A DNA stretch of 64,000 bases. Origin: Gemmatimonadota bacterium (GTDB lineage Bacteria; Gemmatimonadota; Gemmatimonadetes; Palauibacterales; Palauibacteraceae). The DNA is taken from the NCBI GenBank assembly GCA_046757845.1, contig JBHHYZ010000003.1:26628-90627 (forward strand). The letters run 5' to 3'. Of the stretch, positions 10,351 through 38,584 are shown one piece after another; positions within the stretch are counted from its first letter, which is position 1, and each line of letters begins with the position of its first letter. The translations under genes and the position numbers were made by a program. The notes under the pieces were generated by a model. The model did not search any database, was not told where the DNA came from, and saw only the letters and a list, made by a program, of their open reading frames with translations.

Positions 10351-10366
10351 ACCGGCCGCGATCCCG

Positions 10367-12012: not shown

Positions 12013-12021
12013 CCCCCCACC

Positions 12022-12764: not shown

Positions 12765-12782
12765 GCCGTCCCACTCACCCCT

Positions 12783-16179: not shown

Positions 16180-17726
16180 CATGCGGATTCGGCCGGAAGA
16201 GGCGGCGAGGGGCCCGGGCGGGCCGAGGATGTCGGAGGTTTCCCGCGGTCCAGAATCGGCTTCAGGAACGGAGGAACCAGGAACGTGGACATCATCACCA
16301 TGATCAGGATCGCGCTGTACACCTCGTTCGACAGAATCCCCTCCCTGAGGCCGAACGCCGCGAAGATGAGACCCACCTCGCCTCGCGGCACCATGCCGAC
16401 GCCCACCGCGAGCCGATTGACCTCCGGATGGCGAACCGCGAACCCCCCCACGAGTTTCCCCACGATGGCGATGACCGTGAGGATGCCACCCACGGCCAGC
16501 ACCGGGAGGCTGAAGTCGTGTGTTCCGGGGATGAACAGGCGCACGTTGACGGGGACCCCGACCACCACGAAGAAGATGGGGGTGAACACGTCCGCCACGG
16601 GCTCGATCCGCTCTACCACCGTGTCGAATTGATTGGTCGACGAGAGTATGATCCCGGCTGCGAAGGCCCCGATGATCATCGCCGAGCCGGACAGATCGGC
16701 CAACGCGGCCAGCAGAAGCGCGAAGCAGAACGCCGTCACAAGAAGCACGCCGCGAACCCGCATTCCGTCCACGATGTTGAACAGGTAGGGAGCGGCTCGA
16801 TTGCCGATGACCACCGCCAGAACCAGGAATCCGACCGCGAACAGGAAGATCTTTCCGATCGCCAGCACACCGACGGCGGCGCCGCTCGCCAGGCCGACCA
16901 CCACGGCCAGGATGATGATGCCGAGCACGTCGTCGATCACGGCGGCTCCAACGATGATGCGGGCTTCCCGAGTGTGCATCTTGCCCAGGTCCGAGAGTAC
17001 TCTCGCGGTGATTCCCACCGAGGTCGCGGTGAGAGTGGCCCCTACGAAGATGGCGACGATGGAGAAGGTGATGCCCGGCGGGTGAGCCCCGATGGTAGGA
17101 TTGAACGCGTACCAGTAGCCGAAGCCGAGACCGAACGGGACCAGCACGCCGATGCAGGCGACCAGAAAGGCGGACGGGCCCACCCGGAACATTTCTTTCA
17201 GATCGGTCTCCAACCCGATCTCGAACAGCAGGATGGACACTCCGATCTCGGAGAAGACGTAGATGATCTCCCGCAGCGCCGTCCCCTCGGGCGGAATCAC
17301 TCCCAGGACGCTGCCCCCGAGTACGACGCCGGCGGCCAGTTCCCCGAGCACCGCCGGCTGGCCGATCCGCTCGGCCAGCTCCCCGAAGAACTTGCCCAGG
17401 AGCAGAATCGCGATGAGAACAAGAAACACGTGGGCGATGTCCGGGCCTTCCGAGCCCTGGCGTGGCTCCGGAGTCTGGGCCTCGTGTCCCTGGCGGGAGG
17501 GGGCGAACGAGTCGCCCGGCTGACCCATCGCCGGGCCGGCGGCAAGCGCGGGGGCGGTCGTGGACGGCTGGGTGGCCACTGGCCGGGAAGCAGTGCCCGC
17601 GTCTTCCGCGACGGCCCGGTCGCGGGTCGCTCCGCTCACCAGCACCGCCAAACCGAGGGCCAGACCGACGACCCTCATCCACGACGGCGTGCGCCGCCGC
17701 CGGCTTCTAGCGGGCTCCGGGCTCAC
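16179..17726 (-). CDS. cation:proton antiporter (CPA family Na+/H+ exchanger)
   Basis: 12-13 TM hydrophobic protein; 'LGKFFGELAERIGQPAVLGELAAGVVLG' is typical of Kef/NhaP-type antiporters. Confidence 0.75.
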   Translation of the reverse strand: MSPEPARSRRRRTPSWMRVVGLALGLAVLVSGATRDRAVAEDAGTASRPVATQPSTTAPALAAGPAMGQPGDSFAPSRQGHEAQTPEPRQGSEGPDIAHVFLVLIAILLLGKFFGELAERIGQPAVLGELAAGVVLGGSVLGVIPPEGTALREIIYVFSEIGVSILLFEIGLETDLKEMFRVGPSAFLVACIGVLVPFGLGFGYWYAFNPTIGAHPPGITFSIVAIFVGATLTATSVGITARVLSDLGKMHTREARIIVGAAVIDDVLGIIILAVVVGLASGAAVGVLAIGKIFLFAVGFLVLAVVIGNRAAPYLFNIVDGMRVRGVLLVTAFCFALLLAALADLSGSAMIIGAFAAGIILSSTNQFDTVVERIEPVADVFTPIFFVVVGVPVNVRLFIPGTHDFSLPVLAVGGILTVIAIVGKLVGGFAVRHPEVNRLAVGVGMVPRGEVGLIFAAFGLREGILSNEVYSAILIMVMMSTFLVPPFLKPILDRGKPPTSSARPGPSPPLPAESA

Positions 17727-18614: not shown

Positions 18615-19365
18615 AGATCGCCTCCGCGTACGGCTCCGGCACGGTCCGCCGTTCGATCAATCTCCAGCGTGCCCGGCTGGGAGTCAGGTTGTCCCGGTAC
18701 TCCGCTTCGGCCGGCCATCCCGTTTCTCCCTTCCACTCAAGCTCGATCCGGCGGGACACGCGGCCCTCCGCCCGCTCCTCCAGCCGCACCACCCGCTCCT
18801 TCGCCACGAAGAAGAAACGCGTCGCCCCCCCTCCAGTTTCATATACCAGCACATCCGCATCACCACTCCGGAAGCCGCGGCTGGGCTCCGGAGCTCCCGG
18901 TCGGAACAGGCCCGCCATCGCATACAGGAACGCCGGGGCGGGAAGCTGCACATCTTCAATCTCGCCCAACGTCGTCAGAGAGTCACGGGCCAGGACCGCC
19001 GACATCGACCCTTCCCCCGTGGTGAAGAAGTCCAGGCGGAACTTGTCCGGCGGATTGATGCGCGCCACCCCATCCCCGCGAAGCCGTCCGTTGTGGTCCG
19101 CGTAGTCCCATTGGAAGCGAATGAATGTGGGCCGTTCCGCAGCCGTTCGGGAATACAACCGAGCGGCCACAGCCCCGGGATCGGCCAGGGCCGGCCCCAT
19201 CCGGATCTGTCCGGCACACCCGATGGACAGAACCGCGGCGCAACCCGCGATGGTCCCCAGCCGTAGAGTTCCCGGTCTTATCAACGAAGTCGATCTCCTC
19301 ACCGTTCCAGGGCGGACCGCACGATCGTAGGGAGCCGCATGAGCGTCCCGTGCGCATTCGTGCAC
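18592..19365 (-). CDS. hypothetical lipoprotein (LolB-like/DUF4292-like?)
   Basis: Signal peptide plus lipobox 'VLSIGCAG'; no catalytic motif. Confidence 0.35.
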   Translation of the reverse strand: MHECARDAHAAPYDRAVRPGTVRRSTSLIRPGTLRLGTIAGCAAVLSIGCAGQIRMGPALADPGAVAARLYSRTAAERPTFIRFQWDYADHNGRLRGDGVARINPPDKFRLDFFTTGEGSMSAVLARDSLTTLGEIEDVQLPAPAFLYAMAGLFRPGAPEPSRGFRSGDADVLVYETGGGATRFFFVAKERVVRLEERAEGRVSRRIELEWKGETGWPAEAEYRDNLTPSRARWRLIERRTVPEPYAEAIFELEAPG

Positions 19366-19846: not shown

Positions 19847-20584
19847 ATGATCCAACGTCCCAGCATCCTCGTGTCCGACGCCCATCTCGGAGCTGTCCCG
19901 CTCGCGGCCCAGAAGGCCTTCGGAGAGTTTCTCGAGTCCGTTCCGGATCTGTCCGACGACCTGATCATCAACGGGGACCTGTTCGATTTCTGGTTCGAGT
20001 ACCGGCGAGTGATCCTGCGCGAGCATTTTCGCGTGCTCTGCCGACTGGCGGAGCTGGTGGATGGTGGAGTTCGGATCCGGCTGGTGGGCGGGAACCATGA
20101 CGCCTGGGGCGGGAGCTTTCTGAGCGAAGAGATCGGGATTGAGCTCGTCCGCGGACCCTGTCATATCCAGCTCGGCGGCCGCCGGGCCTATCTGGCGCAC
20201 GGCGATGGACTGGCGGGAGGAGACTGGGGCTATCGCGTGCTCAAGCGAACGATTCGCAGCCAAGTCGGATCGGCTCTGTTCCGGCTCATCCACCCCGACC
20301 TGGGGCGGCCGATCGCGAGCTTGTTCAGCGCGACTGCCGCTCGGGAGCTCCGCGGGCCCGGAGTCAAGTCGGCTCGGGCCATACGCCTCTCCGAGCACGC
20401 GGCACAACTGTTGAGGAGCGATCCCACCCTGGATCTGGTGGTGTTCGGTCACACACACTGGCCGGAGCTGAGCGAGGTCGAGCCGGGACGATACTACTTG
20501 AATCCCGGAGACTGGGTCCACCATTTCACCTACGGCGTCGTGAGCCCCTCCGAGGTGCTTCTCAAGCGCTGGACCCTAGACTGA
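19847..20584 (+). CDS. lpxH: UDP-2,3-diacylglucosamine hydrolase (metallophosphoesterase)
   Basis: 'VSDAHLG', 'INGDLFDFW', 'GGNHD', 'HGD' and 'GHTH' are calcineurin-like phosphoesterase motifs in LpxH order. Confidence 0.7.
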   Translation: MIQRPSILVSDAHLGAVPLAAQKAFGEFLESVPDLSDDLIINGDLFDFWFEYRRVILREHFRVLCRLAELVDGGVRIRLVGGNHDAWGGSFLSEEIGIELVRGPCHIQLGGRRAYLAHGDGLAGGDWGYRVLKRTIRSQVGSALFRLIHPDLGRPIASLFSATAARELRGPGVKSARAIRLSEHAAQLLRSDPTLDLVVFGHTHWPELSEVEPGRYYLNPGDWVHHFTYGVVSPSEVLLKRWTLD

Positions 20585-21406
20585 CCGTCTCCACATCTCC
20601 CGGATCCGACCCGAGGAAACGCCTCGCCAGAATCCCGAAGCGCGCCTCGTCGTCGGTGACGAAGGTCTGGTGCCGCCGGCGCACGTTTCCGCCGGCCAGA
20701 AGCTCTTCCGCGGCCAGGACCTCTTCCACCGCCGCCGCCGTGGCTTCGGCCGAATCGATCACGACCACCGAATCGCCCGCGAGCCCGGACAGGAGCGGAC
20801 GCAGCAGTGGGTAATGGGTGCAGCCCAGGACGAGCGTGTCGATCCCCCGTGAAAGAAGAGGCTTGAGATAGGTCGACGCCGTCAGCCGGGCGACCTCCCC
20901 TTGGGTCCAGCCCTCCTCGGCCAGAGCCACGAACAGAGGACAGGCGTTGGAATGGACCACCGCATCGGGCCGCACGCTCCGGATCGCCGCTTCGTAGCTC
21001 CCGCTATCTATCGTTCCGCGCGTGCCGATCACTCCGATCGCGCCACACCGCGAGCGCCGGGCCGCTTCTCTCGCACCCGGCTGGATCACTCCGATCACGG
21101 GGACCGCGGTTCGGTCCGCCAGGTGCCGGTGCGCGCGGGCCGTCGCCGTGTTGCACGCGATCACCACCGCCTTCACGCGCCGGGCCAAAAGGAAGTCCAC
21201 CGCCTCCGTGGCGTATCGGCGCACCGTCTCGGGCGATTTCGGTCCGTACGGCACCCGGGCGGTGTCGCCCAGATAGACCGTGGCTTCCCGGGGGAGCCGG
21301 TCCCAGATGGCCCGGAGAACCGTCAGTCCTCCGACACCCGAATCGAACACGCCGATGGGAGCGTCCCTCCGCCCGGTGGAGCCGGTCTCACCGCTCTCAT
21401 TGCGCA
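20562..21406 (-). CDS. murI: glutamate racemase
   Basis: 'IGVFDSGVGGLTV', 'ACNTA' and 'LGCTHYP' are the MurI signatures. The likely GTG start is near 21406. Confidence 0.85.
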
Positions 21407-21439
21407 CGGGCCGTTCTTCCGGGTCTCCGATGGGCGAGC

Positions 21440-21901
21440 CTACGGGAACCCCAGGGGCACGCGGTACTCGACCTGGATCCCCACCTGGCCGTCGTCGGGT
21501 GGCTTCAGCTGCGGCTCGAAGTGCCAGAACTGCGTGGAGACCCAAGCATCGATCCCGCTCATGAAAGCCCAGAATCCCGCGAGCACGATCCAGTTCTCGC
21601 GCTGATCGGTGCGCGAATCGATCAGTGCCTGGTTTCGCGGTTCCGCATTCTTCGCCGCGTGAAGCTTGGCCTGGGACTTGAGGACCATGAACACCGTGGC
21701 CGCTTCCAGAGTGAAGTAGATGGCTCCGCGCGTCGGTCGATCCACGGACGTCTGACCCCAGCCAGGCAGAATCAGGGAGCGCGCGAACGCACCGAGAGGC
21801 GTGACGGGAGGCAGGCTGTCGACCTCGGCGGCGGCGGTATCCGGCGGAGTCACACCCTGGGCCGCCACCGGACCGCCACCCCCCAGCAACCAGCTGATCA
21901 A
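21440..21901 (-). CDS. hypothetical secreted/membrane protein
   Basis: Signal-like 'LISWLLGGGGPVAAQG'. The ORF-track N-terminus overlaps tRNA-Sec, so the real start must lie at or below 21901 (TTG). Confidence 0.3.
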   Translation of the reverse strand: MISWLLGGGGPVAAQGVTPPDTAAAEVDSLPPVTPLGAFARSLILPGWGQTSVDRPTRGAIYFTLEAATVFMVLKSQAKLHAAKNAEPRNQALIDSRTDQRENWIVLAGFWAFMSGIDAWVSTQFWHFEPQLKPPDDGQVGIQVEYRVPLGFP

Positions 21902-21906: not shown

Positions 21907-22004
21907 TGGCGGGAACGTGTGGGAATCGAACCCACCCAGGACGTTTCCGCGCCCCGTGACGGTTTTGAAGACCGCAGGCAACACCAGTCACCATCCGCTC
22001 CCGC
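21907..22004 (-). tRNA. selC: tRNA-Sec (selenocysteine tRNA, anticodon UCA)
   Basis: My own reverse complement gives GCGGGAGCGGATGG...GCGGTCTTCAAAACCGTC...GTGGGTTCGATTCCCACACGTTCCCGCCA. The anticodon loop CUUCAAA (UCA) is identical to E. coli selC; there is a T-loop GGTTCGATTCC and a long variable arm; about 98 nt. Confidence 0.7.
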
Positions 22005-22055
22005 AAGCCGGGTCGCAATCAGGGGCAGGAGGTCGCTTCCTCGCCATGCTCACCT

Positions 22056-22436
22056 TCAACCCCTGTGCGCGATCACCTCTATCTCCACCCGCGCTCCCCT
22101 GGGAAGCGCGGCCACCTGAACCGTGGAGCGCGCCGGGTGGGGCGCGCGAAAACGCTCGGCGTACGCCCGGTTGACCGTCACGAAATCCGACATGTCCACC
22201 AGAAACACCGTCGTCTTGACGACGTCATCGAAGCCGAGCCGCGCGGCCTTCAGAACGGCTTCCAGGTTGCGCAGCACCCGCACGATCTCAGCTTCCACCC
22301 CTCCCGGGACCAATTCTCCCGAGTCCGGATCCAGTCCGATCTGCCCCGCCGAGAAGAACAGCCCACCCGCCCAGACACCCTGCGCGTACGGACCGATCGC
22401 CGCCGGTGCTCCCTCCGTGTGTACCGTGCCCTTCAC
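22056..22436 (-). CDS. RidA/YjgF family reactive intermediate deaminase
   Basis: 'EGAPAAIGPYAQGV' and 'TTVFLVDMSDFVTVNRAYAERF' are the RidA signature. The likely GTG start is near 22436. Confidence 0.7.
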   Translation of the reverse strand: MKGTVHTEGAPAAIGPYAQGVWAGGLFFSAGQIGLDPDSGELVPGGVEAEIVRVLRNLEAVLKAARLGFDDVVKTTVFLVDMSDFVTVNRAYAERFRAPHPARSTVQVAALPRGARVEIEVIAHRG

Positions 22437-23506
22437 CTGCCACCTCCCGCCTGTTCCACTCCATCCGTGTCCGGCGCGGATGGAGGAGCCGCGCCCCTGC
22501 GCTTGCCCTCCGCGCCGGAGCCCCGGCCAGGTTCCACGGCACTCCGTCGCGCCGACGATACCCCACAAGCGGGGCCGCGCTTCACCCATTCCTCAACAAG
22601 CTCCGCACAGGACACGGGTTGGGCTCCCGACTTCGAAACCTCGATTCCCGCCGCAAAATTCGCCAGCACGGCGGCCTCGCGCAAAGGCGCGTCGGCCCCG
22701 ATGAAGGCCGAGACGACCGCCGTCACGGTGTCACCGGCCCCCGAGACATCATAGACGTCCCGCGCTCGCGATGGGATCCGCAGCTCTCTCCCCTCGCCTC
22801 CCTCCAACAGCAACATTCCGCGCTGTCCGAGCGTTATCAGCAGGTTGCGGCACGCGAGCCTCCGCAGCACGGGCCGGAGGTCATCGAGCAGCGTCCAGAC
22901 GCTCTCGCGGCCCAAGGCCGCCGCCAATTCGCGCCCATTGCATTTGAACAGGAGAGCACCCTGAAGCAGGAGGAACCGCCGCAGCTTGGGATCCACCACC
23001 GACGGAATGCCACGCCGCGCCGCTTCGCTCAGCAGCACGGCACCGGTGTCTCGCCCCAGGGCACCCTTGTCGTAATCCTCCAGGACCAAGACATCCGCAC
23101 CATCCATGGCATCCACGGCACACCTCTGAAGCTTCAGGCTGGCGGCCTCGGAGAGGTCTTCGTCGGACTCCCGATCTATGCGGATCATCTGCTGGTGTCG
23201 GGACAGAACTCGCGTCTTCACGGTGGTGGGGCGCTCCGAAATTCGGAGGAGCGATTCGGAACCGATTCCCTCCTCTTCCAATCGTCCGCACAGCGCCTCG
23301 GCGGCCGCGTCGGCACCCACGACCCCGACCAGACGGCAATCCGCGCCCAGCGCGCGGAGCCCGACCGCGACGTTGGCGGCGCCTCCCAGGGTTTCCCGCT
23401 CCGCCTGCACACGAACGACCGGAACCGGGGCCTCGGGCGAAATCCGTTCGGTGGACCCGTGGATGTGGCGGTCCAACATCACATCCCCGACGACGAGCGC
23501 TCTCAC
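22433..23506 (-). CDS. D-glycero-beta-D-manno-heptose-7-phosphate kinase (HldE/RfaE domain I, PfkB family)
   Basis: 'ALVVGDVMLDRHIHG', 'LGGAANVA' and 'DVSGAGDTV' are PfkB/RfaE kinase motifs. Confidence 0.75.
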   Translation of the reverse strand: MRALVVGDVMLDRHIHGSTERISPEAPVPVVRVQAERETLGGAANVAVGLRALGADCRLVGVVGADAAAEALCGRLEEEGIGSESLLRISERPTTVKTRVLSRHQQMIRIDRESDEDLSEAASLKLQRCAVDAMDGADVLVLEDYDKGALGRDTGAVLLSEAARRGIPSVVDPKLRRFLLLQGALLFKCNGRELAAALGRESVWTLLDDLRPVLRRLACRNLLITLGQRGMLLLEGGEGRELRIPSRARDVYDVSGAGDTVTAVVSAFIGADAPLREAAVLANFAAGIEVSKSGAQPVSCAELVEEWVKRGPACGVSSARRSAVEPGRGSGAEGKRRGAAPPSAPDTDGVEQAGGGR

Positions 23507-23728
23507 CGCTTTCAGCCGGTCGAGCCAACGCTGTATCGAATCCCGGTCGGGGGCGAGATGCAGAAGTCGATCGTCCGTAGGTCCACCTTGCGAAGGCCGA
23601 AGGCTGCCGGTAACCTGCCGCCACGAGCCGGCCTCGAATCCGCCGCGCGGGAGCGGGCGTGCTGGCCCACGAAGGCGATCGCGACGCGGCCGTGGAGCCG
23701 CGCGCGAAAGTATTCCTGACCCCGGACG

Positions 23729-24580
23729 GTGTCAAAGGACGCTCCGATGCGCCAGCGCTCCTCCATCGTGACTCCCGCCCGCTTCATCGACAGCCTGCTC
23801 AAGCGGGCCGCCCTGGATGCGCAGACGTATTTTCTTCTCCTCCTCAAGACGGTGAAGGCCAGCTTTACGCGTCCCTTTTATGTTAGAGATCTCGTGCAGC
23901 AGATGGAAACGATCGGGGTCAACTCCCTCGGAATCGTGATCCTCACAGGCCTGTTCACGGGAATGGTGCTCGCGCTCCAGGCGGCCTTGGAGATGGAACA
24001 GTTCGGCGCCGTCATCTACATGGGCCGCGTGGTCGGCGCGAGCGCCGTGCGGGAGCTGGGACCGGTCCTGACGGCTCTCATGGTCACGGGACGGGCGGGC
24101 TCCGGAATGGCGGCGGAATTGGGAGCGATGAAGGTTACCGAACAGGTGGACGCGTTGGACACGATGGGTGTCGATCCGGTCCGCAAGCTGGTGGTGACCC
24201 GGGTGTTGGCAGCTCTGCTGGTGCTTCCGCTACTCACCGTTGTCGCCGACGTCATCGCGGTACTGGGCGGTCTGCTGATCGCGGTTGTCAAGTTGAACCT
24301 GACCTTCGATCTGTACATGAGAGGAGTCTACATCTCTCTGGCGGAGACGGGATTCCTGTTCCGATATGTGCCCATCGACATCCTGACCGGCATGATCAAG
24401 CCGATCGTGTTCGGAGGGATCATGGCGCTCACCGCGTGCCATTACGGGCTGACCACGGAAGGAGGCACCGAGGGAGTGGGAAGGGCCACCACCCGTTCGG
24501 TGGTGACATCGTCGGTTCTGATCCTGGCGGCGGACTATTTCATCACTCAGATCATCATCTCCCTGTTGATCCGATCATGA
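23729..24580 (+). CDS. mlaE: phospholipid ABC transporter permease
   Basis: MlaE/Ttg2B family: 'VRELGPVLTALMVTGRAGSGMAAELGAMKVTEQVDAL'. Confidence 0.85.
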   Translation: MSKDAPMRQRSSIVTPARFIDSLLKRAALDAQTYFLLLLKTVKASFTRPFYVRDLVQQMETIGVNSLGIVILTGLFTGMVLALQAALEMEQFGAVIYMGRVVGASAVRELGPVLTALMVTGRAGSGMAAELGAMKVTEQVDALDTMGVDPVRKLVVTRVLAALLVLPLLTVVADVIAVLGGLLIAVVKLNLTFDLYMRGVYISLAETGFLFRYVPIDILTGMIKPIVFGGIMALTACHYGLTTEGGTEGVGRATTRSVVTSSVLILAADYFITQIIISLLIRS

Positions 24581-25413
24581 GGGAGCAGGCCGGATCGAGG
24601 GAATCCGACTCCGCTCGCGAACCCGTCGGCAGGGTCGAGGCCGGAGGGCGCCCGGGGATCGTGCACACACCTCCGATCGCGGGACACGGTTGCGTGGCGC
24701 TCGACGATGTCTGGCTCACCTACGGGGACCATCCGGTGCTCAAAGGAATCAGCCTGGCAGTCTCGGGGGGGGAGATCCTCTGCGTACTGGGCGGTTCGGG
24801 CGAGGGAAAGTCAACCATCCTGCGGTTGATCCTCCGCTTGATCCGGCCGGACTCCGGCCGCATCTACGTGGACGGGACGGAGATCTGCCAGGCCCCGACG
24901 GATGTCGTCCTGAAGCTTCGACGTCACATGGGAATGGTGTTCCAGGGTTCCGCGCTGTTCGACAGTCTCACCGTGTTCGACAACGTGGCGTTCCCTCTCT
25001 ACGAGCACTCCACCCTGGACGACGAGCAGATCCGCGCCCGCGTCAACGAAGTGCTCAGCTTCGTGGACCTCGTGCCCGTGCAGGTGCTGGATCTTCTCCC
25101 CGCCGAGCTTAGCGGGGGCATGCAGAAACGGGTGGGAATCGCTCGCGCGATCGTGCACGAACCCTCCATCTTGCTGTTCGACGAGCCTACGAGCGGTCTC
25201 GATCCGGTGACCACCAAAACGATCGATCAGCTGATCCTGAAGCTACAGCGGGAACTGGGGGCATGCGCCGTGGTGGTCACGCATGACATTCAATCGGCCG
25301 AAAGGATTTCGACCCGAATCGCCTTGCTGGAGAAGGGCGAGATCCGTTTCATCGGGACGCCGGAAGAGATGCTCGCCTCGAAGGATCCACATGTTTGCGC
25401 GTTCCTCTCCTGA
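24577..25413 (+). CDS. mlaF: phospholipid ABC transporter ATP-binding protein
   Basis: Walker A 'GGSGEGKST', 'LSGGMQKRV' and 'LLFDEPTSGLD'. ATG at 24577 overlaps the mlaE stop. Confidence 0.85.
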   Translation: MREQAGSRESDSAREPVGRVEAGGRPGIVHTPPIAGHGCVALDDVWLTYGDHPVLKGISLAVSGGEILCVLGGSGEGKSTILRLILRLIRPDSGRIYVDGTEICQAPTDVVLKLRRHMGMVFQGSALFDSLTVFDNVAFPLYEHSTLDDEQIRARVNEVLSFVDLVPVQVLDLLPAELSGGMQKRVGIARAIVHEPSILLFDEPTSGLDPVTTKTIDQLILKLQRELGACAVVVTHDIQSAERISTRIALLEKGEIRFIGTPEEMLASKDPHVCAFLS

Positions 25414-25497
25414 GAGGCCGCGAACCCGACTACTGCACCACCGCGTTCGAAGGTTCGGAACCGAGCGGGGCGGGCGGGCCAGGAGGTTGTTGCCATC

Positions 25498-26478
25498 GTG
25501 AGACGATCGAGACAGGTGACCTGGGATCAGGTTCGGGTGGGGCTTTTCGTCATCGTCGCGCTGGTGATGCTGCTGGTAGGCGTTTTCCTGGTGGGGGACA
25601 CCGGCTCGGTGTTTGGAGAGCGCTACCACCTGGTCACGCTCATGAACTCCGCCGCCGGCCTGGCCCGCGGCGCCGCCGTCCAGGTCGCCGGCCAACCGGT
25701 GGGCCAGGTCGATCATGTCCAGCTGATCCCGCCCGAGAAGCGGCCGGCCTCCGGCGAAGCGGTGGCGGTGTGGCTCGCCGTGGACCGGGAGATCCAGACC
25801 CAGGTGCGAGAGGACTCCAAAGCTCGAATCCGGACCCAGGGCCTGCTGGGCGACAAGCTCATCGACATCGATCCGGGCTCCCCCGGCGCCCGCGTCCTGC
25901 GCGATGGCGATACCATCGCGGCGGCTCCGGAGCTCAACTATCAAGAAGCCCTAGATGAGGCTTCGGCCGCCGTACGACAGCTCACGATCCTGACCAAGAA
26001 CCTGGCGGACCTCACCGACCGGTTTCTGGCGGGAGAGGGAACGGCAGGTCAACTCATCGTGAACGACGAGCTGTATCGGCATCTGGTCGACCTCAGCGGC
26101 AGCATGAACGACGTGATGTCCAAGCTCTCGTCCCGGGAGAGCTCTCTGGGCAAGATGCTGGAGAGCGGTGAGCTGTACGACCGACTCCTCTCCATGACCT
26201 CGGCCATGGACACGCTGGCCACCGAGGTCACGACGGGACAGAGCACCCTGGGCAAGCTGTTCCGGTCGGACTCGTTGTATCGTTCGCTGGCATCGGTCGC
26301 GGCGCGCGCGGATTCCGTATTCGGCGCGATCCAGGCGGGTGAAGGGGCGATGGGACAGCTGGTCACCGACGACGCGCTCTACGAGGAACTCCTGCGCATG
26401 CTGGTGGACCTCAACTCGATCCTCACCGACCTGCGCACGTCCCCACAGAAGTACATCCCGCCGATCAAGGTCTTCTGA
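25498..26478 (+). CDS. mlaD: MCE-family phospholipid-binding protein
   Basis: N-terminal TM helix plus MCE domain ('AAVQVAGQPVGQVDHVQL'), then a long coiled-coil C-terminus. Confidence 0.8.
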   Translation: MRRSRQVTWDQVRVGLFVIVALVMLLVGVFLVGDTGSVFGERYHLVTLMNSAAGLARGAAVQVAGQPVGQVDHVQLIPPEKRPASGEAVAVWLAVDREIQTQVREDSKARIRTQGLLGDKLIDIDPGSPGARVLRDGDTIAAAPELNYQEALDEASAAVRQLTILTKNLADLTDRFLAGEGTAGQLIVNDELYRHLVDLSGSMNDVMSKLSSRESSLGKMLESGELYDRLLSMTSAMDTLATEVTTGQSTLGKLFRSDSLYRSLASVAARADSVFGAIQAGEGAMGQLVTDDALYEELLRMLVDLNSILTDLRTSPQKYIPPIKVF

Positions 26479-26482
26479 CGGG

Positions 26483-26505
26483 CCGGCCCCCGAGCCTGGG
26501 GCCGG
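26483..26505. terminator. GC-rich hairpin between convergent mlaD and tmRNA
   Basis: CCGGCCCC-cgagcct-GGGGCCGG; an 8-bp stem directly after the mlaD stop. It lacks a clear U-tract. Confidence 0.4.
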
Positions 26506-26525
26506 TGGGAAAGAAATGAAATGAA

Positions 26526-26886
26526 TGGAGGCGGCGGGAATCGAACCCGCGTCCGCGAGCCCTTCCGCCACGGCATCTACGTGCGTAGCCAGGAGTCAGA
26601 ATCTCGCCACGGGACAGCCTCCAGGCTACCTCCCCGCGGCCAGCCGTCGGTCGGCTTGCGCCATCTCATCGCGGACGCCTACGGCGTGCGCCCACGACCA
26701 GCCCGATATCTCGTCGCCTTCCGGCCCGCCTCGGGCACGGCAAATCGGAAGACGGACCGCGTTAGTTACGCGGCCAGTGCCAAGTTGTCGTTGGCAGTTG
26801 AAATCTTTCCCGGTGTTTTACGAGGCCCCGGGACCTCGGCACGCTTCCGCAGCTTCTAGTTCACGCGTCGAAGCCGTATCGCCCCC
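26526..26886 (-). ncRNA. ssrA: tmRNA (SsrA), tag peptide ANDNLALAA, CCA not encoded
   Basis: My own rc gives 5' GGGGGCGATACGGCTTCGACG... and 3' ...GCGGGTTCGATTCCCGCCGCCTCCA. The acceptor pairs GGGGGCG with CGCCUCC through G3:U70. Tag ORF: GCC AAC GAC AAC TTG GCA CTG GCC GCG TAA. Confidence 0.85.
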
Positions 26887-26992
26887 CTCTGCTCTCGAAA
26901 CACGTCCGCGGGCGGTCCCGCAGGCCACAGAGCCCGCCCCCCATCCACACGTTGGACCGTACACCCGGTTCGAAAGATGGGTCCGTCCGGGC

Positions 26993-27757
26993 TCAGTCTG
27001 GAGCGCAGAGGCGGTTGATGCGTGTGGCGGCACAGGCCGCGCCATACCCGTTGTCCACGTTCATCACTGTCAGTCCCGGAGCGCACGATGTCAGCATCGC
27101 CAGCAGGGCGGCCAGGCCGCCCATCGCCACCCCGTAGCCCGTGCTGGCCGGCACACCGATCACAGGCACGGGCAGCAATCCGGCGACGACCGATGGCAAG
27201 GCTCCATCCATCCCCGCCACCACGATCACGACGCTCGCTCCTCTCAGCGCATCCTGGATGCTCAGAATCCGGTGAAGGCCGCTGACTCCCACATCGGCGT
27301 ACAGGTCCACCGGATTGCCGAGCGCGGCCGCCGTGAGGCGGGCCTCTTCCGCGACAGGAAGATCCGCGGTCCCCGCCGTGACGATCGCGACCCGGCCCAG
27401 CACTCGGGCAGTACATGGATCGGAGGGCGGCAGGTGCGCGATACGCCCCAGCTCGGAGAACTGCAGCAGCGGATACTCCGCTCGCAGGCCTTCAAGCTGG
27501 TCCCGGCTGGTCCGCGTCGCGATGAATCCCTCGCCCGCTGCCGCCAGGGACCGGCAGATGTGGAGGACCTCCTCCGTCTGTTTCCCTTCGCACAGAACGG
27601 CTTCAGGGTATCCCAACCGGACGGGCCGGTGGGAGTCCAGACGGGCGAAGCCCAGATTCTCGATGGGGTCCCGGGAGAACATGGAAAGAATCTCGGCGGT
27701 CTCAGTCTCGCCCCGCCGAAACGCTTCTAGCAGACGAATCAGCCGTTCCGCGCTCAC
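26993..27757 (-). CDS. LarB-like (PurE-fold) nickel-pincer cofactor biosynthesis protein homolog
   Basis: 'GEGFIATRTS' and 'AIVTAGTADLPVAEEARLTAAALGNPVDLYADVGVSGLHRI...VVIVVAGMDGALPSVVAGL' show a PurE/NCAIR-mutase-like fold with the LarB-type N-terminal extension. Start estimated at a GTG near 27757. Confidence 0.55.
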   Translation of the reverse strand: MSAERLIRLLEAFRRGETETAEILSMFSRDPIENLGFARLDSHRPVRLGYPEAVLCEGKQTEEVLHICRSLAAAGEGFIATRTSRDQLEGLRAEYPLLQFSELGRIAHLPPSDPCTARVLGRVAIVTAGTADLPVAEEARLTAAALGNPVDLYADVGVSGLHRILSIQDALRGASVVIVVAGMDGALPSVVAGLLPVPVIGVPASTGYGVAMGGLAALLAMLTSCAPGLTVMNVDNGYGAACAATRINRLCAPD

Positions 27758-27928
27758 CGATCGGCTCGCCCGACGCTTCCGCCGACCTGGGGGAGACGCC
27801 GTCCGGGCGGCTTTGACAGCCTTTCGTTCGCATCGGTATACTCGTGTCCGGCTTCGCGGTCCCGAGAACGGGATCTCGGCCCGTGCCTGTTCCACGCAGA
27901 ATTGGCCTCAACTCGAGGAGCGATATAG

Positions 27929-28381
27929 ATGCATCTCCGCGATTTCTTCACTGCCGACGCCATCAAGCTGAATCTGGAATCGGAGACCAAAGACGACGCC
28001 CTGAAAGAGCTCGTGAGCCTGTTCCACCTCGATACGAAATCGGAGGGGATCCTGTTCAAGATGCTCAAGCGACGAGAAAACCTCGGCTCCACCGGCATCG
28101 GGCGCGGCATCGCGATCCCCCACTGCCGATCCCTGGTCGTGAATCGCCTGCGGGTGGCGTTCGGACGCCGACCCTCCGGGCTGGACTTCAAGGCCATCGA
28201 CGAAAAACCCGTGCGATACATCTTTCTGATCGTCGCCCCACCTCTGGAAGTTTCCAATCAGTATCTGCCCGTGCTGGGCAAGATCGCTCAGTTCAGCAAG
28301 GAAAGCGACGTTCCCGAACTGCTGTCCGAGATCCGGCAGCCTGAGGACTTCCTCGAGCTGCTGGAAAAGAAAGGCGTGTGA
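27929..28381 (+). CDS. ptsN: PTS IIA-Ntr type regulatory protein
   Basis: 'GIGRGIAIPHCR' (active-site His) and 'YIFLIVAP'. Confidence 0.75.
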   Translation: MHLRDFFTADAIKLNLESETKDDALKELVSLFHLDTKSEGILFKMLKRRENLGSTGIGRGIAIPHCRSLVVNRLRVAFGRRPSGLDFKAIDEKPVRYIFLIVAPPLEVSNQYLPVLGKIAQFSKESDVPELLSEIRQPEDFLELLEKKGV

Positions 28382-28382
28382 C

Positions 28383-28739
28383 GTGCATCCGCAACTCGAG
28401 CTCCTGCTGGAGATACAGGATCTCCGATCCCAGCGCGCGGCCCTCCAGGAAGCGCCGGTGCGGGAAGTGGAGTCCGGCGTGTTCGACGTCCAGATAGACG
28501 AGGCCCTCTCGCTGCTCGAGCACAAGCTCGAGGAGCTGGCGGACCGGCTGGATTCCGGGGTGAGAAGCCGCTACCGCCAGTTCGTCAGCAGGGACATCCG
28601 CGCCGTGGTCCCGGTGCTCCAGGGCATCTGCTACGGTTGTTTCGTGGCGGTTCCCACGGCGGTCGCCTCGGAGGCCACCCGGAATCAGAAGCTCGCCGTG
28701 TGCGAGAACTGCGGGCGCTTTCTCTATCACGTGAGCTGA
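28383..28739 (+). CDS. C4-type zinc-ribbon domain protein
   Basis: Coiled-coil N-terminus plus 'CYGCFVAV...CENCGRFL'; immediately follows ptsN. Confidence 0.5.
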   Translation: MHPQLELLLEIQDLRSQRAALQEAPVREVESGVFDVQIDEALSLLEHKLEELADRLDSGVRSRYRQFVSRDIRAVVPVLQGICYGCFVAVPTAVASEATRNQKLAVCENCGRFLYHVS

Positions 28740-28800
28740 GCCCAGCGAGCCCGCTCCGCCGGCGTCAGTTTCGCATTCTTGTGCACGTTCACCGTAGCCC

Positions 28801-28850
28801 CCGACGAGTAGGTTGTGAAGGCTTTTCTCACCTCCAGCTTACTCGTCGGC
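28801..28850. repeat. 10-bp perfect inverted repeat with a 29-nt loop between convergent genes
   Basis: CCGACGAGTA...TACTCGTCGG. Confidence 0.3.
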
Positions 28851-28895
28851 TTCCGGTGAACAACCATCTTGCGACTTACAGCTAGGAACGGCCTT

Positions 28896-29381
28896 CTAGC
28901 GAACCAGAAGCAGTCTCCGAACCTGAGCCTCTCCATCCACCAGGAGTTGTACGAAATACGGGCCCGGAGTAAGCTTCTTCCCCTGCAGGTCGCGCCCGTC
29001 CCACACCGCCTCGTAGGATCCTGGGCGAACGAAAGCCACCTGATCAAGCCGCCGCCCCGGCTTCCCGTCATTCCCGCTGAGCTTCGGCATGGCGACGAGT
29101 TGATGGAGGATGTTGTACACTCGCATCGACACGGTGACCGCATGCCCCTTTCGAAACAACGCTTCTCCGAGAATGAACGGCAGGCGTGTCTCCCTGTCGA
29201 ACGGGTTGGGAAAGGCCGGCTGCAGAGAGAAATCGGTTTCGTGCAGGCCCCTGATCCGTCCCCGCGCATCCTGGGCCACGGCGGCGTGGCCGCATGCCAG
29301 GAGCAGCACCAGGATAAGCGGAAAACCTCGCCGGGTCGCTCCCGCCCTCCGCGCGACCAGGCACTCAGCCGGCCAGCTCAC
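28896..29381 (-). CDS. small secreted protein with a T9SS/FlgD-Ig-like C-terminal sorting domain
   Basis: Signal peptide 'LILVLLLACGHAAVAQ'. 'FPNPFDRETRLPFIL...VTVSMRVYNILHQLVAM...YEAVWDGRDLQGKKLTPGPYFVQLLVDGEAQVRRLLLV' matches the Por-secretion C-terminal-domain pattern. Confidence 0.4.
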   Translation of the reverse strand: MSWPAECLVARRAGATRRGFPLILVLLLACGHAAVAQDARGRIRGLHETDFSLQPAFPNPFDRETRLPFILGEALFRKGHAVTVSMRVYNILHQLVAMPKLSGNDGKPGRRLDQVAFVRPGSYEAVWDGRDLQGKKLTPGPYFVQLLVDGEAQVRRLLLVR

Positions 29382-31284
29382 GTCCCTCTCCCGTGCGGCG
29401 CGTCACGCCCCGTCGATCCAGATACTCCAGGATCGGGATCAGGTACTTGCGGCTAACGCCGAACGCCTCCTTGAACACGCCGGGCGCCGCTACCCGCTCC
29501 CTCGCGAGCAGCTCCCGGGCTCGTGCGGCCAGCTCCTCCGCGAGCGCCGCTTGAAGATAGATCTCGGGCGTCAGCGCGACGATCTTCCCCTCTTCCTGGA
29601 GCAGCAGCAGCAGGTCCTGGAGCAGGTCGCGCTCCATCCGGAGAGTCCGTTCCAGGTCCGACAGGGTCTCGGGCTCCGCTCCGCCCGCGCGGATCGACTC
29701 CAGCAGGCGTTCCTGCTGCCTTCGTTCCTCATCCGTAAGCGCGGGTCGGTGATCCGGCAGACGAGCGCCGGGACCGTGGATCTCTACCCGCCCTGCCTCC
29801 GCCATGCGGGCCAGAACGTGGTCCACGAGCTCGTCGGCGAAGCGCCTTTTCCCGACCTCCTTGAGGGCCCCCAGCGACACGGCAGCCACCCGGCGCCGCT
29901 GTCGATGCAGCCGGCGAAGCTCACCTTCGAGGAACTCGGCCGCTTCCTCGGCTCGGCGGCTCGTGAACCACCGGTCCTTGACGCGAAGGAGACCGCTCAC
30001 CTCCCGCCCCAGCAATCCGGCCACTTCCTCTGACGGAAGTCCCGTCACCAGCGGCATTCTTGGAGTCTCGACCCCGCGGCCGCCGTGCAAGCCGACCGCC
30101 GCCACCAGCGCCTCCTCCGGGGAGCCATCCAGAATCCGCTTCCACTCCGCCAGGCTCTGGCGCCAGCCGCGGCCCGGCTGCAGCTGGGCGACCTGCCCGC
30201 CGCCCAGGGTGCAGACCGGCGAGTAGAAGCGGAGCACGAAGCGATCCTTCACGCGCGCTACCAGGGCCTCCTCGAGCCACAGCAGGGCCCAACCCCTCCG
30301 GCCCGGCTCCAACTCGCCGCCTTCCGGAAGCAGCACGCGCGCCATCACCTCTTTCGTTCCCAGATACACCCGTAGCCTGCGCTCGTGATCCACAGGTCGG
30401 CCCGCCCCCGCGAGCACCTCGATACGGACGCCCAGCCGGCGGCACTCCTCCCACACTTCGTCGCGCACGGCCACGGTGCCTCGTGGCACCCGCTGGGCCT
30501 GAACCCCCACCAGGGCCATGGCGCACCGCCGACCGGCTCCGACCGCTCGGCGCGCTTCCCCATGAACCTGAAGTCCCCGAACGCGAGCCCGCCGGCCCAG
30601 CGGCCATAGCAGGACCTCCTCCCCCGTCCTCACTTCGCCGCTCCACACGGTCCCGGTCACCACAGTCCCCGTCCCTCGAACGGAGAACGACCGGTCAATG
30701 GGCAGTCGGAACAGGTCATCCACCGGCCGATCCTTCACATCGCCGGCCGCCCCTTTCAGGGCCTCACGCAGCCCGACCATGCCTTCTCCCGTGGTGGAAG
30801 ATACCGGCAGGATCGGCCACTCCCCGTGGCCGAGTGTCCGCCGCAGCGCATCGCGCGTCGCCTCCCGAGCCAGATCGAGCCAGTCCTCATCCACCCTGTC
30901 CGCCTTGGTGAGCGCCACCACTCCACGGTTCACACCCAACAGCTTCGCGATGGACAGATGCTCGAACGTCTGCGGCATGGGCCCTTCATCCGCCGCAACC
31001 ACCAGCAGCAGAAGATCGATGCCCGTCGCGCCGGCCAGCATGTTCTTGAGGAAATCCTCGTGCCCCGGCACATCCACGACACCGGCCTCGATGCCGGTCC
31101 CCAGGCTCAAACGGGCGAACCCGATATCGATGGTCAGGCCCCGTTCCTTCTCTTCCTTCCACCGGTCCGTATCCACTCCGGTGAGCGCCCGGACGAGCGA
31201 TGTCTTGCCGTGGTCCACATGGCCGGCCGTACCCACCACGATGCCCTTCGGAGTCGCGCCGGGGCTTCGCTCGGATGGAGTCAC
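29365..31284 (-). CDS. selB: selenocysteine-specific translation elongation factor
   Basis: '[16 protein letters not shown]', 'DVPGHEDF' and 'LTKADRV' form the GTPase; the long C-terminal winged-helix region is typical of bacterial SelB; 639 aa. Confidence 0.85.
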
Positions 31285-32006
31285 GGCAAGCCTCCCAGAA
31301 AATCGAGCGATCGCAGGCGCGTCCCTTCCGCCATGTGGTAGCGGATGAAGTCGGCCACCAGCCTACCCTGCGAGGCGCCCACCGGACCCGCTACCTCCTC
31401 GGCCCGCCCGAGCAGGCCCCGCAAGCCGGCCAGCTCGACGGGATCGACCCGGCGGCCCACGGGAGCGCACTCGCCGCAACGTAGTCCACCCGCTTCGAAA
31501 TCGAAGCGGGCTCCCCGGCCCACGGGAATGGGTCGGTGGCACTCCACGCAAGCGTCAAGATCCGGTTCGAACCCCAGAATGACCACGAGCCGCCAGATGT
31601 GCCGGAGCGCCACCGTCTCGACGGCTCCACCCGGGGCCTCCATCAGCGCGTCCAGACCCCGCGTCAGCTCGCCGTACAGCCTCTTATCGGGATGCTCCGG
31701 CGCGAGCCTGAGAACCAGCTCGCAGAGGACCGAGGCTCCGGTGAACGCGTGAACATCTCGAGCCAGCGGCTGCCGAGCTCGAATCAGCTCGAACCCCGAG
31801 AGCGTGCAGAGCTCGCGGTTCTCCCGGACATATAGCGTAGCCACGCCTTCCACGAAGGGTTCCAGGAGGCCGCCGAACCGACTCCTGGGGCGAAGCGCAC
31901 CGCGGGCGAGGGCGGAGCGCGGACCCAGCTCCGCCGTCATCAGGCGCAGAATCTTGCTGGTGTCGCTGTAACGGTACGTCTGGAGAACGATCGTTCGTGT
32001 CGTTAC
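31281..32006 (-). CDS. recO: DNA repair protein RecO
   Basis: '[28 protein letters not shown]' and the C-terminal Cys cluster 'CVECHRP...CGEC'. Likely GTG start near 32006. Confidence 0.7.
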
Positions 32007-32128
32007 CAGCCCCACCGCGTCTCTCCGAGGGTTTGCGACCCGAGAAAGCTTTTCTGCCGCTCCTTCCACGGCGGTCGGGGCCACCGTGGGTGCGGTGCAT
32101 CGCTCGTCCGCGCCCCCTCCACCACCTG

Positions 32129-33238
32129 CTAGCGGAGCGCGATGTCGGTCGAGCCGAACCCGGACGTGATGCTGGAGATCTCCGCTCCGTTGGAATCCAG
32201 CAGATACAGCCGCCCGGGTGCCGCGGTTGAGAAGGTGGCGCACAGGAGGCGGCCATCCGCCATGGCGGTCGCCACCCAGCACGCGATGTCCGCTCCGTTC
32301 ACGTCCACGGGCTGGATGGGATTGTCGGGTCCCCGTACCCAATCCCCGGTGGAAGGATTGAACATCAGCACCTGGATGCTCTGGAAGTCCAGAGTCGTCG
32401 TCACATAGACCCGGCCATTCTTTCCGGCTTCCAGGGACAGTCCGTTTCCGCCCAGCGGCAGGGTTTCGACGACCGCACTCGCCGACGGGCGGGTCTGGAC
32501 GAGCGTTCCATTGCCGACCGGCATGAAGTTCGCATCGAAACCGCCCGAAGCCATGACAGTGAGCCGATCTTCCGTGAAGATCGCATCCCGTGCGTTCACG
32601 CTGCCCGGCAGGGAGAATGCCGCCACCTGGAGACCGCTCGTGACATTGATCACGATGACGCGTGCATCCCCGAGGGGCTGAAATGTCCCTCCCTCGTCAT
32701 CGAGATTCGCGTCGACCAGAACCAGGACATTGCCACCCGGAAGCACCCGCTCCACGAACTCTCCGACATCCTGAGACACGAGAGAAGCGACGGCCTGATT
32801 CGGGGTGGCCCGGAACACCTGGTTGGTGCCGCGACCGGCCACCCACGCATTCACCTCCCCGGCGACGTTCACCGACAGCGTCGCCTTACCTGGATTGACG
32901 GCCGTACCCGCTCCCTGGAACGCGACCTGAAGCTGCGAACCGTTCTCCAGGCTACCGAAGATCAGCTGACTGCCGCCGAACGAGCTGATCGTGGTCACAA
33001 ACAGGGGAGAAAACACATCGATCGCATCCCCATCGAAGTTCTCGGGGAGCACGATGTCCGGAGCGGCGACGCTCAATCCCTCCCCGACCGAAAAGCGGCC
33101 GATCGTCTTCCCGACGGAATTGAGCACGAACACACTGCCGAAATCCGTCCTCGGCGGCGGATTGACTCCCGCGCTCGTGCCGCAGCCCGCGAGCGCGGCC
33201 AGTGAAGTCCCTGCGATGAGTGTTCGGACGAGTTTCAT
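32129..33238 (-). CDS. lipoprotein with beta-propeller-like repeats
   Basis: Lipobox 'LAALAGCGT'. Repeated 'G..V.V/..NG..' strands. It lies immediately downstream of the TonB-dependent receptor of the B12-riboswitch operon. Confidence 0.45.
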   Translation of the reverse strand: MKLVRTLIAGTSLAALAGCGTSAGVNPPPRTDFGSVFVLNSVGKTIGRFSVGEGLSVAAPDIVLPENFDGDAIDVFSPLFVTTISSFGGSQLIFGSLENGSQLQVAFQGAGTAVNPGKATLSVNVAGEVNAWVAGRGTNQVFRATPNQAVASLVSQDVGEFVERVLPGGNVLVLVDANLDDEGGTFQPLGDARVIVINVTSGLQVAAFSLPGSVNARDAIFTEDRLTVMASGGFDANFMPVGNGTLVQTRPSASAVVETLPLGGNGLSLEAGKNGRVYVTTTLDFQSIQVLMFNPSTGDWVRGPDNPIQPVDVNGADIACWVATAMADGRLLCATFSTAAPGRLYLLDSNGAEISSITSGFGSTDIALR

Positions 33239-35451
33239 CTCGGTCTCCTGTCTCGAGTCAAGCTACTCCCTGGTGTGGCTCTCGGCGACGCCCGCTCGCC
33301 GCGATGTGTCCGCTCCGGGGCCGCGAAGCTCAGGCGCATCTCCAGCCGGCGTCCCGGCTCGGGGAAAAGGGCTATCACTTCATAACGTCGATCCAGCAGG
33401 TTACGGATCCGCAACTCCGCGCGGAGCGGCAGGTCGCCCAGGTTCATCTCCTGCGTCGCGGACACGTCGACCAGACTGAAGGCGGGAAGATGGTGCGTGC
33501 CGGCCAGGGTCGTGGTTCGAGCGCCGGTGAGCGCCCACTCGGCCGTGAACACCCGGGAACCCACCCTTCTGGCCAGGTTTACCCGGGCGCGATGCCCCGG
33601 CTGGTACGGCAGCGACCGCTGGGTCGCTTCCGACGGGATGCGGCTTCGCGAGGCGCTACCCGCAAGCCCGATCCGCCACCCGCGAGCCGGGCGCCACCGG
33701 GCCTCCCACTCCAATCCCCGAGCGTTCAGCCGCTCCAGATTCCTAGGACTCCAGATGGCTACGCTACTGGCCAACCACACGATCGGATTCGCCGTACGCC
33801 GGGAATAGAAGCTCACGCGAGCCTGCAACGACCCGTTCTCCGCCTCCCATTCCGCTCCGAGCTCCGCATCCCGTCGGACCTTCTCGGCCCGGAGATCCGG
33901 GTTCGGCCGAACTCCGTAGGCCGCCGCAAAGTACAGATCGCTGAACGTCGGAAAGCGGAACGCCTGCCCGATTCTCCCCCACAACGTCCACCCGGAAGCC
34001 GGACGGCCGGTGAGCACGAGGCCGGGGCTCCACGACCGCTCGCCCGGCCCGAAATCCAGGGTCAAACTGGGCCGAATCTCGAACTGCGGGCCGCCGAAGG
34101 TTCGGGACACGGTAATCCCCGCGGACAACCGCGCCGGAGCCTTCCGAAGTCCGTCGCCGGAGACGGTCTCGCGCTCGGCGCGAAAGGACGCACGCCAGGC
34201 TCCGTTCCACCGCATCGTCCCGCGAAGCCGGAGGTCCGCCGCACGCTGGCGCTGGTCCGTGCCCGAGGCTGGATCTCGATACCGTAGCCACCGAGAACGG
34301 AACGCCCCCGACCACTCTCGAGAAGAACCCGTTCCGTACCGTACCGAGGCCTGGACGCCCCGGTCACTCCACCTGGCTCGATCGAACAGATCCGTGCCCA
34401 TGCGCCCCGGAGAACCCCGCTCGACCCGGCTGATTCTAAACCGGCCAGACAGGGGAAGGCGACGCGGAGACCCCGACAGCGCAACGTTCCATCCATGCGC
34501 GTCCGCGTTCTTCCGCACCTCGCGTGGCCGGCCCGGCGTCACCCGATCTCGGAAGGTGAAATCGTTGTCGCTGTCCTCCAGCCGACCACTCAGCGAGAGG
34601 ACGCCGGCCGACCCCTTCGAGGACAGGAACACGTCCGCCGCCCTTCGCCCGAAGGATCCTTTCTCTATCCCCCCCCGCCACATCCGGCCCTCCGGTTGAC
34701 GGGACCGAAGCAGGAGCACCCCCCCGAGGGCTCCGGAACCGTACTCCGCACCGGCTCCCGGGATGACCGTGGCCGACTCCAGCGTCGACCCCGGGATCCC
34801 GGAGAGGTCCGCTTCGCCCGAAACCGGATCGTTCACGGGCACTCCATCGAGCAGAACCAGCACTCCGGAAGGGCGACTGCCTCGCAGGCTGACCACCTGG
34901 CGCCCACCGGCCCCATACTCTCTCACCCCGACGCCGGGCAAGCCGCGCAGCCAGTCGGCGAGGGTGGACAGCTCCTGCTCCGCATGGGTGAAATCGAGAC
35001 GTTGCGCCGCGCGACCCGGCATCCACACCCACCCGCCCCGGTCCACCGTGGCCACCAGCTCCCGGACCACGAACGGGCGGGGCTGCAGAGTCAGCCTCAC
35101 ACGCACCCACTCTCCGGAGGCCACCCGAACGATCTTCTCCAACCGGGAATAGCCGGCGGCTTCGATGTCCAGGAGATAGCGGCCCGCCGCGACAGCCCGG
35201 TTGAGATACCGGCCATCGCCCAGCTCTTCGACCGCCCACGTGAATGCTTCCTTCCTCCGGAGGTCCGGCTCTCCCTCACCGCGGATCGGGCGCGGGACCC
35301 GAAGTGTCACTCGCGCGCCCTCGATCGGTCTGCCGGCCCCCTCAAGCTCCACAACCACCGCACCGGGCCGGGCCGGTGGCAGAGGCGGTTCCTGGGCCGA
35401 GAGCGGACCGGCCGAAAGAGCCACCCGAGCGACCAGCGTGAGGCAGATGAC
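33235..35451 (-). CDS. TonB-dependent outer-membrane receptor (BtuB-like by context)
   Basis: Signal peptide, CarbopepD_reg-like N-terminus, plug ('VVSLRGSRPSGVLVLLDGVPVND') and a 22-strand barrel. The start is uncertain (around 35451). 29 residues follow the expected terminal '...EMRLSF'. Confidence 0.75.
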   Translation of the reverse strand, partial: VICLTLVARVALSAGPLSAQEPPLPPARPGAVVVELEGAGRPIEGARVTLRVPRPIRGEGEPDLRRKEAFTWAVEELGDGRYLNRAVAAGRYLLDIEAAGYSRLEKIVRVASGEWVRVRLTLQPRPFVVRELVATVDRGGWVWMPGRAAQRLDFTHAEQELSTLADWLRGLPGVGVREYGAGGRQVVSLRGSRPSGVLVLLDGVPVNDPVSGEADLSGIPGSTLESATVIPGAGAEYGSGALGGVLLLRSRQPEGRMWRGGIEKGSFGRRAADVFLSSKGSAGVLSLSGRLEDSDNDFTFRDRVTPGRPREVRKNADAHGWNVALSGSPRRLPLSGRFRISRVERGSPGRMGTDLFDRARWSDRGVQASVRYGTGSSREWSGAFRSRWLRYRDPASGTDQRQRAADLRLRGTMRWNGAWRASFRAERETVSGDGLRKAPARLSAGITVSRTFGGPQFEIRPSLTLDFGPGERSWSPGLVLTGRPASGWTLWGRIGQAFRFPTFSDLYFAAAYGVRPNPDLRAEKVRRDAELGAEWEAENGSLQARVSFYSRRTANPIVWLASSVAIWSPRNLERLNARGLEWEARWRPARGWRIGLAGSASRSRIPSEATQRSLPYQPGHRARVNLARRVGSRVFTAEWALTGARTTTLAGTHHLPAFSLVDVSATQEMNLGDLPLRAELRIRNLLDRRYEVIALFPEPGRRLEMRLSFAAPERTHRGERASPRATPGSSLTRDRRPR

Positions 35452-35522
35452 GGGCAGAGTCCGGGCCGCTCGTGTCTCGCCCGGTCGATCCGGGCCCGAT
35501 CGCCGCCCTATCGCCCGCCGTC

Positions 35523-38349: not shown

Positions 38350-38399
38350 TCATCGGGCCTCTAACGAATCCCGCCCACACCCTTCCTTCGAAGAGCTCT

Positions 38400-38520: not shown

Positions 38521-38584
38521 TTCCGAGTCTACTCCAGACCTGCGGGCACCGCAAGGCGAGGCGTGGCTCGGACACCTCGTCCAT

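Follow-up and report, generated by a model that had tools for sequence, protein, structure and literature searches.

The stretch analysed here, hereafter the window, comprises 64,000 nucleotides (64 kb) of contig JBHHYZ010000003.1 from an uncultured Gemmatimonadota bacterium. It encodes, on its minus strand, two components of the bacterial system that decodes UGA as selenocysteine (Sec), namely selC, the gene of the selenocysteine tRNA (tRNA-Sec), and selB, the gene for an elongation factor specific to selenocysteine, which is preceded by the DNA-repair gene recO:

21907–22002, minus strand: selC, tRNA-Sec with the anticodon UCA (ARAGORN and Rfam RF01852)
29365–31284, minus strand: selB, selenocysteine-specific elongation factor of 639 amino acids (aa) with a GTG start (TIGR00475 and Pfam)
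31281–32015, minus strand: recO, directly upstream of selB (Pfam RecO_N and RecO_C)

The product of selB is recognised by TIGR00475, the NCBIfam equivalog model of SelB, with 347.6 bits (cut-off 242.25) over residues 15–636, while models of EF-Tu stay far under their cut-offs. It contains the Pfam domains GTP_EFTU (6e-34), GTP_EFTU_D2, Beta-barrel_SelB and SelB-wing_3, the last of which (58.5 bits, residues 601–635) is the C-terminal winged helix. Like Escherichia coli SelB (PDB 5LZB-D), it possesses the EF-Tu-like domains I–III followed by the winged helix, and its residues 16–634 align with residues 2–602 of the 614 in the E. coli protein (PDB 5lzb chain z; E 1e-75), where conservation extends to the GTPase motifs G1, G3 and G4 (TKAD among them) and to the winged-helix segment at the C-terminus; the window protein differs in having 13 extra N-terminal residues. 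As judged from its sequence, domain IV, which binds the selenocysteine insertion sequence (SECIS), is present, and RNA binding is predicted for it from the family. A preliminary description of the window, made from its letters only, had reported a 639-aa SelB with a complete GTPase and a winged-helix tail, and the equivalog model, the Pfam domains and the full-length alignment all bear this out. It had also considered that selB could be a pseudogene, which it is not, as its frame is intact and conserved.

ARAGORN calls a tRNA-SeC with the anticodon tca at position 35, and a transfer-messenger RNA (tmRNA) is the only other RNA gene that it reports for the window. The former matches the full model (1–91) of RF01852 with 74.5 bits (gathering score 47, E 2e-13), so that both tools return tRNA-Sec and not the non-Sec tRNA that the preliminary description had allowed for. 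The minus strand given there is right, while the length of 98 nucleotides (nt) is to be corrected to 96 nt, including G73 and the encoded CCA. As folded from the single sequence, selC contains an acceptor stem of seven Watson-Crick or GU pairs with G.A as the eighth pair, a D stem of 6 base pairs (bp) with the 4-nt loop UGGU, an anticodon stem of 5 bp with U.C at its top and the loop CUUCAAA, an extra arm of 7–8 bp and a T stem of 5 bp, and it ends with the discriminator G73 and the encoded CCA. The E. coli-like anticodon loop and the long extra arm noticed earlier are thus both seen in the fold. The hallmarks of bacterial tRNA-Sec, a 13-position acceptor and T helix (8+5), a 6-bp D stem with a 4-nt loop, a long variable arm and G73, are all found in selC. 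E. coli selC shares with it the UCA in a CUUCAAA loop, the 8+5 helix, the 6-bp D stem, the long extra arm and G73-CCA; the G.A at the eighth acceptor pair sets the window gene apart. A consensus fold of four aligned homologues, including those of the window, of Gemmatimonadota loci and of a Nitrospiraceae locus (L012), has 31 pairs, of which 7 show compensatory changes of both partners, for the most part in L012, the more distant sequence, while the stem changes among the Gemmatimonadota sequences are one-sided and keep the pairing (A-U to G-U, G-U to G-C).

The stop codon of recO (TGA) and the start codon of selB (GTG) share the sequence GTGA at 31281–31284 on the minus strand, which suggests translational coupling of the DNA-repair gene with selB. 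The open reading frame (ORF) abutting selB, which extends over 31281–32342 (minus strand), was tried as selA and rejected, as it is RecO according to Pfam; a 244-aa recO is also the gene call in L033, a contig of an independent assembly in Logan (SRR29324611). In six loci of Nitrospirota, Bacillota and Acidimicrobiia (L004, L005, L008, L012, L015 and L017), the encoded SelB is homologous to that of the window (34–44% identity) and the ORF directly upstream, ending at the selB start, is selA (TIGR00474, 414–615 bits), whereas the window contains no SelA-like sequence in any frame; one of these loci, L012, resembles the window in that its tRNA-Sec lies downstream of selB at a distance of a few kb. 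In the window and in related Gemmatimonadota genomes, the position upstream of selB is taken by recO or by other genes. E. coli likewise differs from the window in that its selB is preceded by selA and not by an overlapping recO. The recO gene itself does not belong to the Sec machinery, and the recO-selB arrangement represents a gene order specific to the lineage rather than a novel type of system.

The two sel genes are 7.36 kb apart, in keeping with the 7.4 kb first described, with selC downstream of selB and ten genes and the tmRNA gene between them. The window features flanking selC and selB, and the genomic loci compared with them, are as follows:

22056–22439, minus strand: ridA, Rid family deaminase (TIGR00004, 151 bits)
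26526–26886, minus strand: tmRNA between selB and selC (ARAGORN; 150.7 bits at 26523–26886), with the tag ANDNLALAA
28896–29381, minus strand: small secreted protein with a weak FlgD_ig-like domain (Pfam), next to selB
L001, JBDHHR010000001.1: Gemmatimonadota locus, SelB 51–53% identical, tRNA-Sec within the fetched stretch
L002, JBHIAV010000005.1: Gemmatimonadota locus, SelB 56% identical, no tRNA-Sec within the fetched stretch
L003, JBDLJJ010000016.1: Gemmatimonadota locus, SelB 51–53% identical, tRNA-Sec within the fetched stretch

These three metagenome-assembled genomes (MAGs) encode the closest SelB (51–56% identity) among the GTDB species representatives searched, an identity low enough to place them in a different genus or family. 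The order common to them and the window comprises a B12-type ABC transporter (FecCD), a lipoprotein, selB, a Zn-ribbon protein, EIIA, tmRNA, MlaD/F/E, RidA, tRNA-Sec, a metallophosphoesterase and a thioesterase, where the neighbourhood of selB in L002 also matches that of the window. The tmRNA, with the tag ANDNLALAA or ANNNLALAA, occupies the same position in all three loci, and ridA, which ends 53 nt upstream of selC on the same strand, keeps this adjacency in L001 and L003. Differences concern LarB, a PfkB/HldE-like kinase and the FlgD_ig-like ORF, which occur in only some of the three loci. In the window, the start of the last runs into the 3' end of selB; this ORF, which is kept in L002, contains no TGA and no redox motif. 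Among the near-identical public contigs (4.5–10.8 kb long), L033 is 99.93% identical to window positions 26530–37340 and encodes an intact SelB of 639 aa that differs by the conservative replacements V183A and D185E; a population of this identity is present in the runs SRR29324611 and SRR29324609. The conserved synteny, the compensatory changes in the tRNA and the intact ORF in L033 argue that selection has kept selB and selC in this lineage, and retention of gene and synteny down to about 51% SelB identity needs long purifying selection. Both genes are maintained and not decaying.

A cobalamin riboswitch (38398–38547, minus strand; 54.5 bits, gathering score 31.5) leads a co-directional run of genes for a BtuF-like binding protein, a FecCD permease, an ABC ATPase, a TonB-dependent receptor and a 369-aa lipoprotein of no known family, and this run continues unbroken into recO-selB.

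The remaining dedicated genes were sought in the window by several routes. The genes were mapped by GC content at the codon positions and by a log-odds model of codon usage trained on Pfam-confirmed genes, and 68 ORFs (nearly every ORF above about 120 aa, with the exception of a few short ones) were scanned with Pfam or NCBIfam; neither SelA nor SelD is among the 68. A SelA profile was built from nine selB-abutting ORFs of other phyla, six of them confirmed by TIGR00474 and three taken by position. Against the six-frame translation of the window its best match has an E of 2.6 and a negative score (436 bits at a control locus), and in the three Gemmatimonadota MAGs the flanks of selB, fetched out to 10 kb on both sides, contain no SelA-like sequence in any frame. 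An ORF of locus L013, taken as SelD-like because of its GGCSAK motif and its context, likewise has no match among the six translated frames of the window. The sole protein of the AIRS fold in the window (AIRS/AIRS_C; 53794–54882, minus strand) was tried as SelD and rejected, since it is PurM (TIGR00878, 331 bits) and scores 27.9 bits with the selD model (cut-off 125). A TGA-split pair of ORFs with a SelD-like total length (20580–20852 and 20853–21605, plus strand) was also rejected, being an arginine-rich antisense shadow of murI (20562–21356, minus strand).

A selenoprotein gene interrupted by TGA was sought by four scans, covering all TGAs with a coding-type GC pattern on both sides, those with a positive codon-usage score on both sides, those in CxxU/UxxC-type contexts, and window peptides spanning a TGA as compared with TGA-tolerant translations of 32 fetched loci (L001–L032), including the three syntenic Gemmatimonadota loci. 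In-frame TGAs with a coding signal on both sides occur at only five places, all of them gene junctions:

12785, minus strand: Mrp-like ATPase, then PCP_red protein
12024, minus strand: ferredoxin, then ABC ATPase
41542, minus strand: spacer upstream of S-adenosylhomocysteine (AdoHcy) hydrolase
49790, minus strand: NusB, then glycosyltransferase
50756, minus strand: RibBA, then RibH

A role as Sec codon was rejected for each of the five, which is the stop of a complete gene with the next start a few codons on. No TGA in the window combines CxxU-type flanks with a positive coding score on both sides. The comparative scan, repeated with stricter settings after a run without composition correction had given 14,142 spurious matches from high-GC off-frame translations, returns only off-frame shadows of conserved genes and shared TGA stops or gene junctions, and no Rfam SECIS family is found in the window even at E<=1. 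The family scans, the six-frame searches and the TGA scans thus agree with the statement in the preliminary description that the window holds no selA, selD or obvious UGA-interrupted ORF. TGA is the stop codon of 55 of the 67 called genes (about 80%) and TAA of none, at a window GC content of 66.7%, so it must be left wholly to SECIS and SelB to tell a Sec UGA from a stop UGA.

The best reading is that the window carries an already-known, ordinary textbook Sec-decoding trait with dispersed genes. With a probability of roughly 90%, the canonical bacterial system, which has four dedicated genes, is represented here by two of them, selB and selC, and its other parts lie outside the 64 kb; it is for this reason that the system is regarded as ordinary. 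In complete-genome surveys, selB and selC are invariably accompanied by selA, selD and selenoproteins (Romero et al. 2005, PMC1273633), so that these are by default expected elsewhere, as one of the two alternatives in the preliminary description has it, and the genome most likely would have a complete system with selA, selD and selenoprotein genes. The lack of a client gene in the window is unsurprising, being what 64 kb taken from a genome with scattered sel genes would be expected to show. In E. coli, selC, selD, selAB and the fdh genes stand at separate loci, as selC and selB do here, so that machinery without a client is not the oddity that had been implied. Nested or overlapping selC and selB are found in Alphaproteobacteria and others (Mukai 2021, PMC8124441), unlike the window, where selC lies well downstream.

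The mechanism of the canonical system is summarised in PMC13188914, where SelA and SelD serve the conversion and SelB brings the tRNA to a UGA with a SECIS hairpin. In the organism of the window, seryl-tRNA synthetase (SerRS) would charge tRNA-Sec with serine, as predicted from family membership, and SelA would turn Ser-tRNA-Sec into Sec-tRNA-Sec using selenophosphate from SelD. SelB-GTP is predicted to bind Sec-tRNA-Sec through its EF-Tu-like domains I–III, while its C-terminal winged helix would bind the SECIS hairpin just 3' of the in-frame UGA; delivery of the tRNA to the A site would then cause that UGA to be read as Sec. The requirement for SECIS is of consequence in the window, UGA being the usual stop codon as well. 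The selB gene of this lineage was probably separated from selA and now stands in the recO-selB arrangement.

Several observations weigh against a complete canonical system. Its completeness is not demonstrated for the genome, as the 64 kb contain no selA, selD, SECIS or selenoprotein gene; selB lacks the adjoining selA seen in the six other lineages checked; the eighth acceptor pair of selC, G.A, is non-Watson-Crick; and the literature on selenium utilisation, searched with its supplements, yielded no statement on Gemmatimonadota. The lack of partner genes in the window and the uncoupling of selB from selA would be expected if selA, selD and the selenoproteins had been lost and selB and selC were relics turning into pseudogenes or had been recruited to another role. 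Such orphan or decaying machinery is nevertheless very unlikely, because the genes are intact, conserved and covarying: SelB is full-length, with every GTPase motif and the winged helix that binds SECIS, gene and synteny are kept down to about 51% protein identity, and tRNA-Sec shows compensatory changes. The surveys of complete genomes also never found selB and selC without selA, selD and selenoproteins (PMC1273633). An equally small chance is given to a recO-selB lineage that keeps SelB and tRNA-Sec without the canonical selA/selD set, or in which they serve an undescribed selenoproteome with unfamiliar genes or SECIS.

The preliminary description had also suggested that a selenoprotein could lie unrecognised in the window, for instance among redox genes split by an in-frame TGA, and here its gene identities stand while the hidden selenoprotein is not supported. 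The two-sided coding signal at TGAs 12785 and 12024 in the redox cluster of the first 14 kb (1–14 kb) would suit such a gene, but at both places the upstream gene has its whole domain, the next start codon comes within 3–7 codons and the downstream protein has its normal N-terminus, so that these are complete genes joined at normal stops. With the empty CxxU-type, comparative and SECIS searches, an unrecognised selenoprotein gene in the window is highly improbable. The G.A at the eighth acceptor pair and the U.C atop the anticodon stem could further be read as signs of a Sec-like allo-tRNA or suppressor, with the factor being a SelB paralogue for other cargo. The G.A is common to all three Gemmatimonadota tRNA-Sec (the window, L001 at 19153–19249 and L003 at 16111–16207), and the Nitrospiraceae tRNA-Sec of L012 is also without a standard eighth pair. 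A genuine tRNA-Sec is supported by the UCA anticodon, the 13-position helix (8+5), the D stem of 6 bp and its 4-nt loop, by G73 and by an Rfam score that exceeds the threshold by 27 bits, and SelB scores above the cut-off of a model at equivalog level and has retained the domain by which the bacterial factor binds SECIS; an allo-tRNA with a SelB paralogue is therefore the least probable of these alternatives.

The canonical reading marks the organism of the window and at least two related MAGs with both genes as selenocysteine users, and is of little importance beyond annotation. Whoever annotates the full genome should look out for selA and selD and for one or more UGA-containing genes, which automatic callers will cut short, and particular care is needed because about 80% of the genes end in TGA. 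The commonest bacterial selenoprotein gene is that of the formate dehydrogenase alpha subunit.

Apart from the sel genes, the first part of the window (1–13700, minus strand) is a cluster of redox and cofactor genes. Three of its proteins contain a C-terminal PCP_red domain (PF08369; protochlorophyllide reductase subunit B), yet no BchB/N/L is present. The cluster also includes a small ferredoxin, an ABC-2 exporter and several c-type cytochromes, in addition to the following:

1683–3830, minus strand: haem b protein resembling EB_dh and the DMSO-reductase gamma subunit
4862–6631, minus strand: CydA-like membrane protein
6688–8097, minus strand: radical SAM/SPASM protein with PCP_red, most like NirJ2/AhbD but far below the cut-off
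8027–10105, minus strand: double-Usp protein with PCP_red
12279–12764, minus strand: small Zn-ribbon protein with PCP_red
12786–13697, minus strand: MrpORP-like Fe-S carrier

Elsewhere, the window encodes a B12-dependent methylmalonyl-CoA mutase (57991–59553) and a LarB homologue (26993–27757, minus strand; 257.7 bits, cut-off 175) of nickel-pincer cofactor biosynthesis, near which neither larC nor larE is found in the window. Genes of the phosphotransferase system (PTS) at 42840–48293 (minus strand) and 27929–28381 (plus strand) encode a complete mannose-family EIIA/EIIB/EIIC/EIID, HPr, enzyme I, HPr kinase and a separate PtsN-like EIIA-2, a notable regulatory set for a Gemmatimonadota genome.

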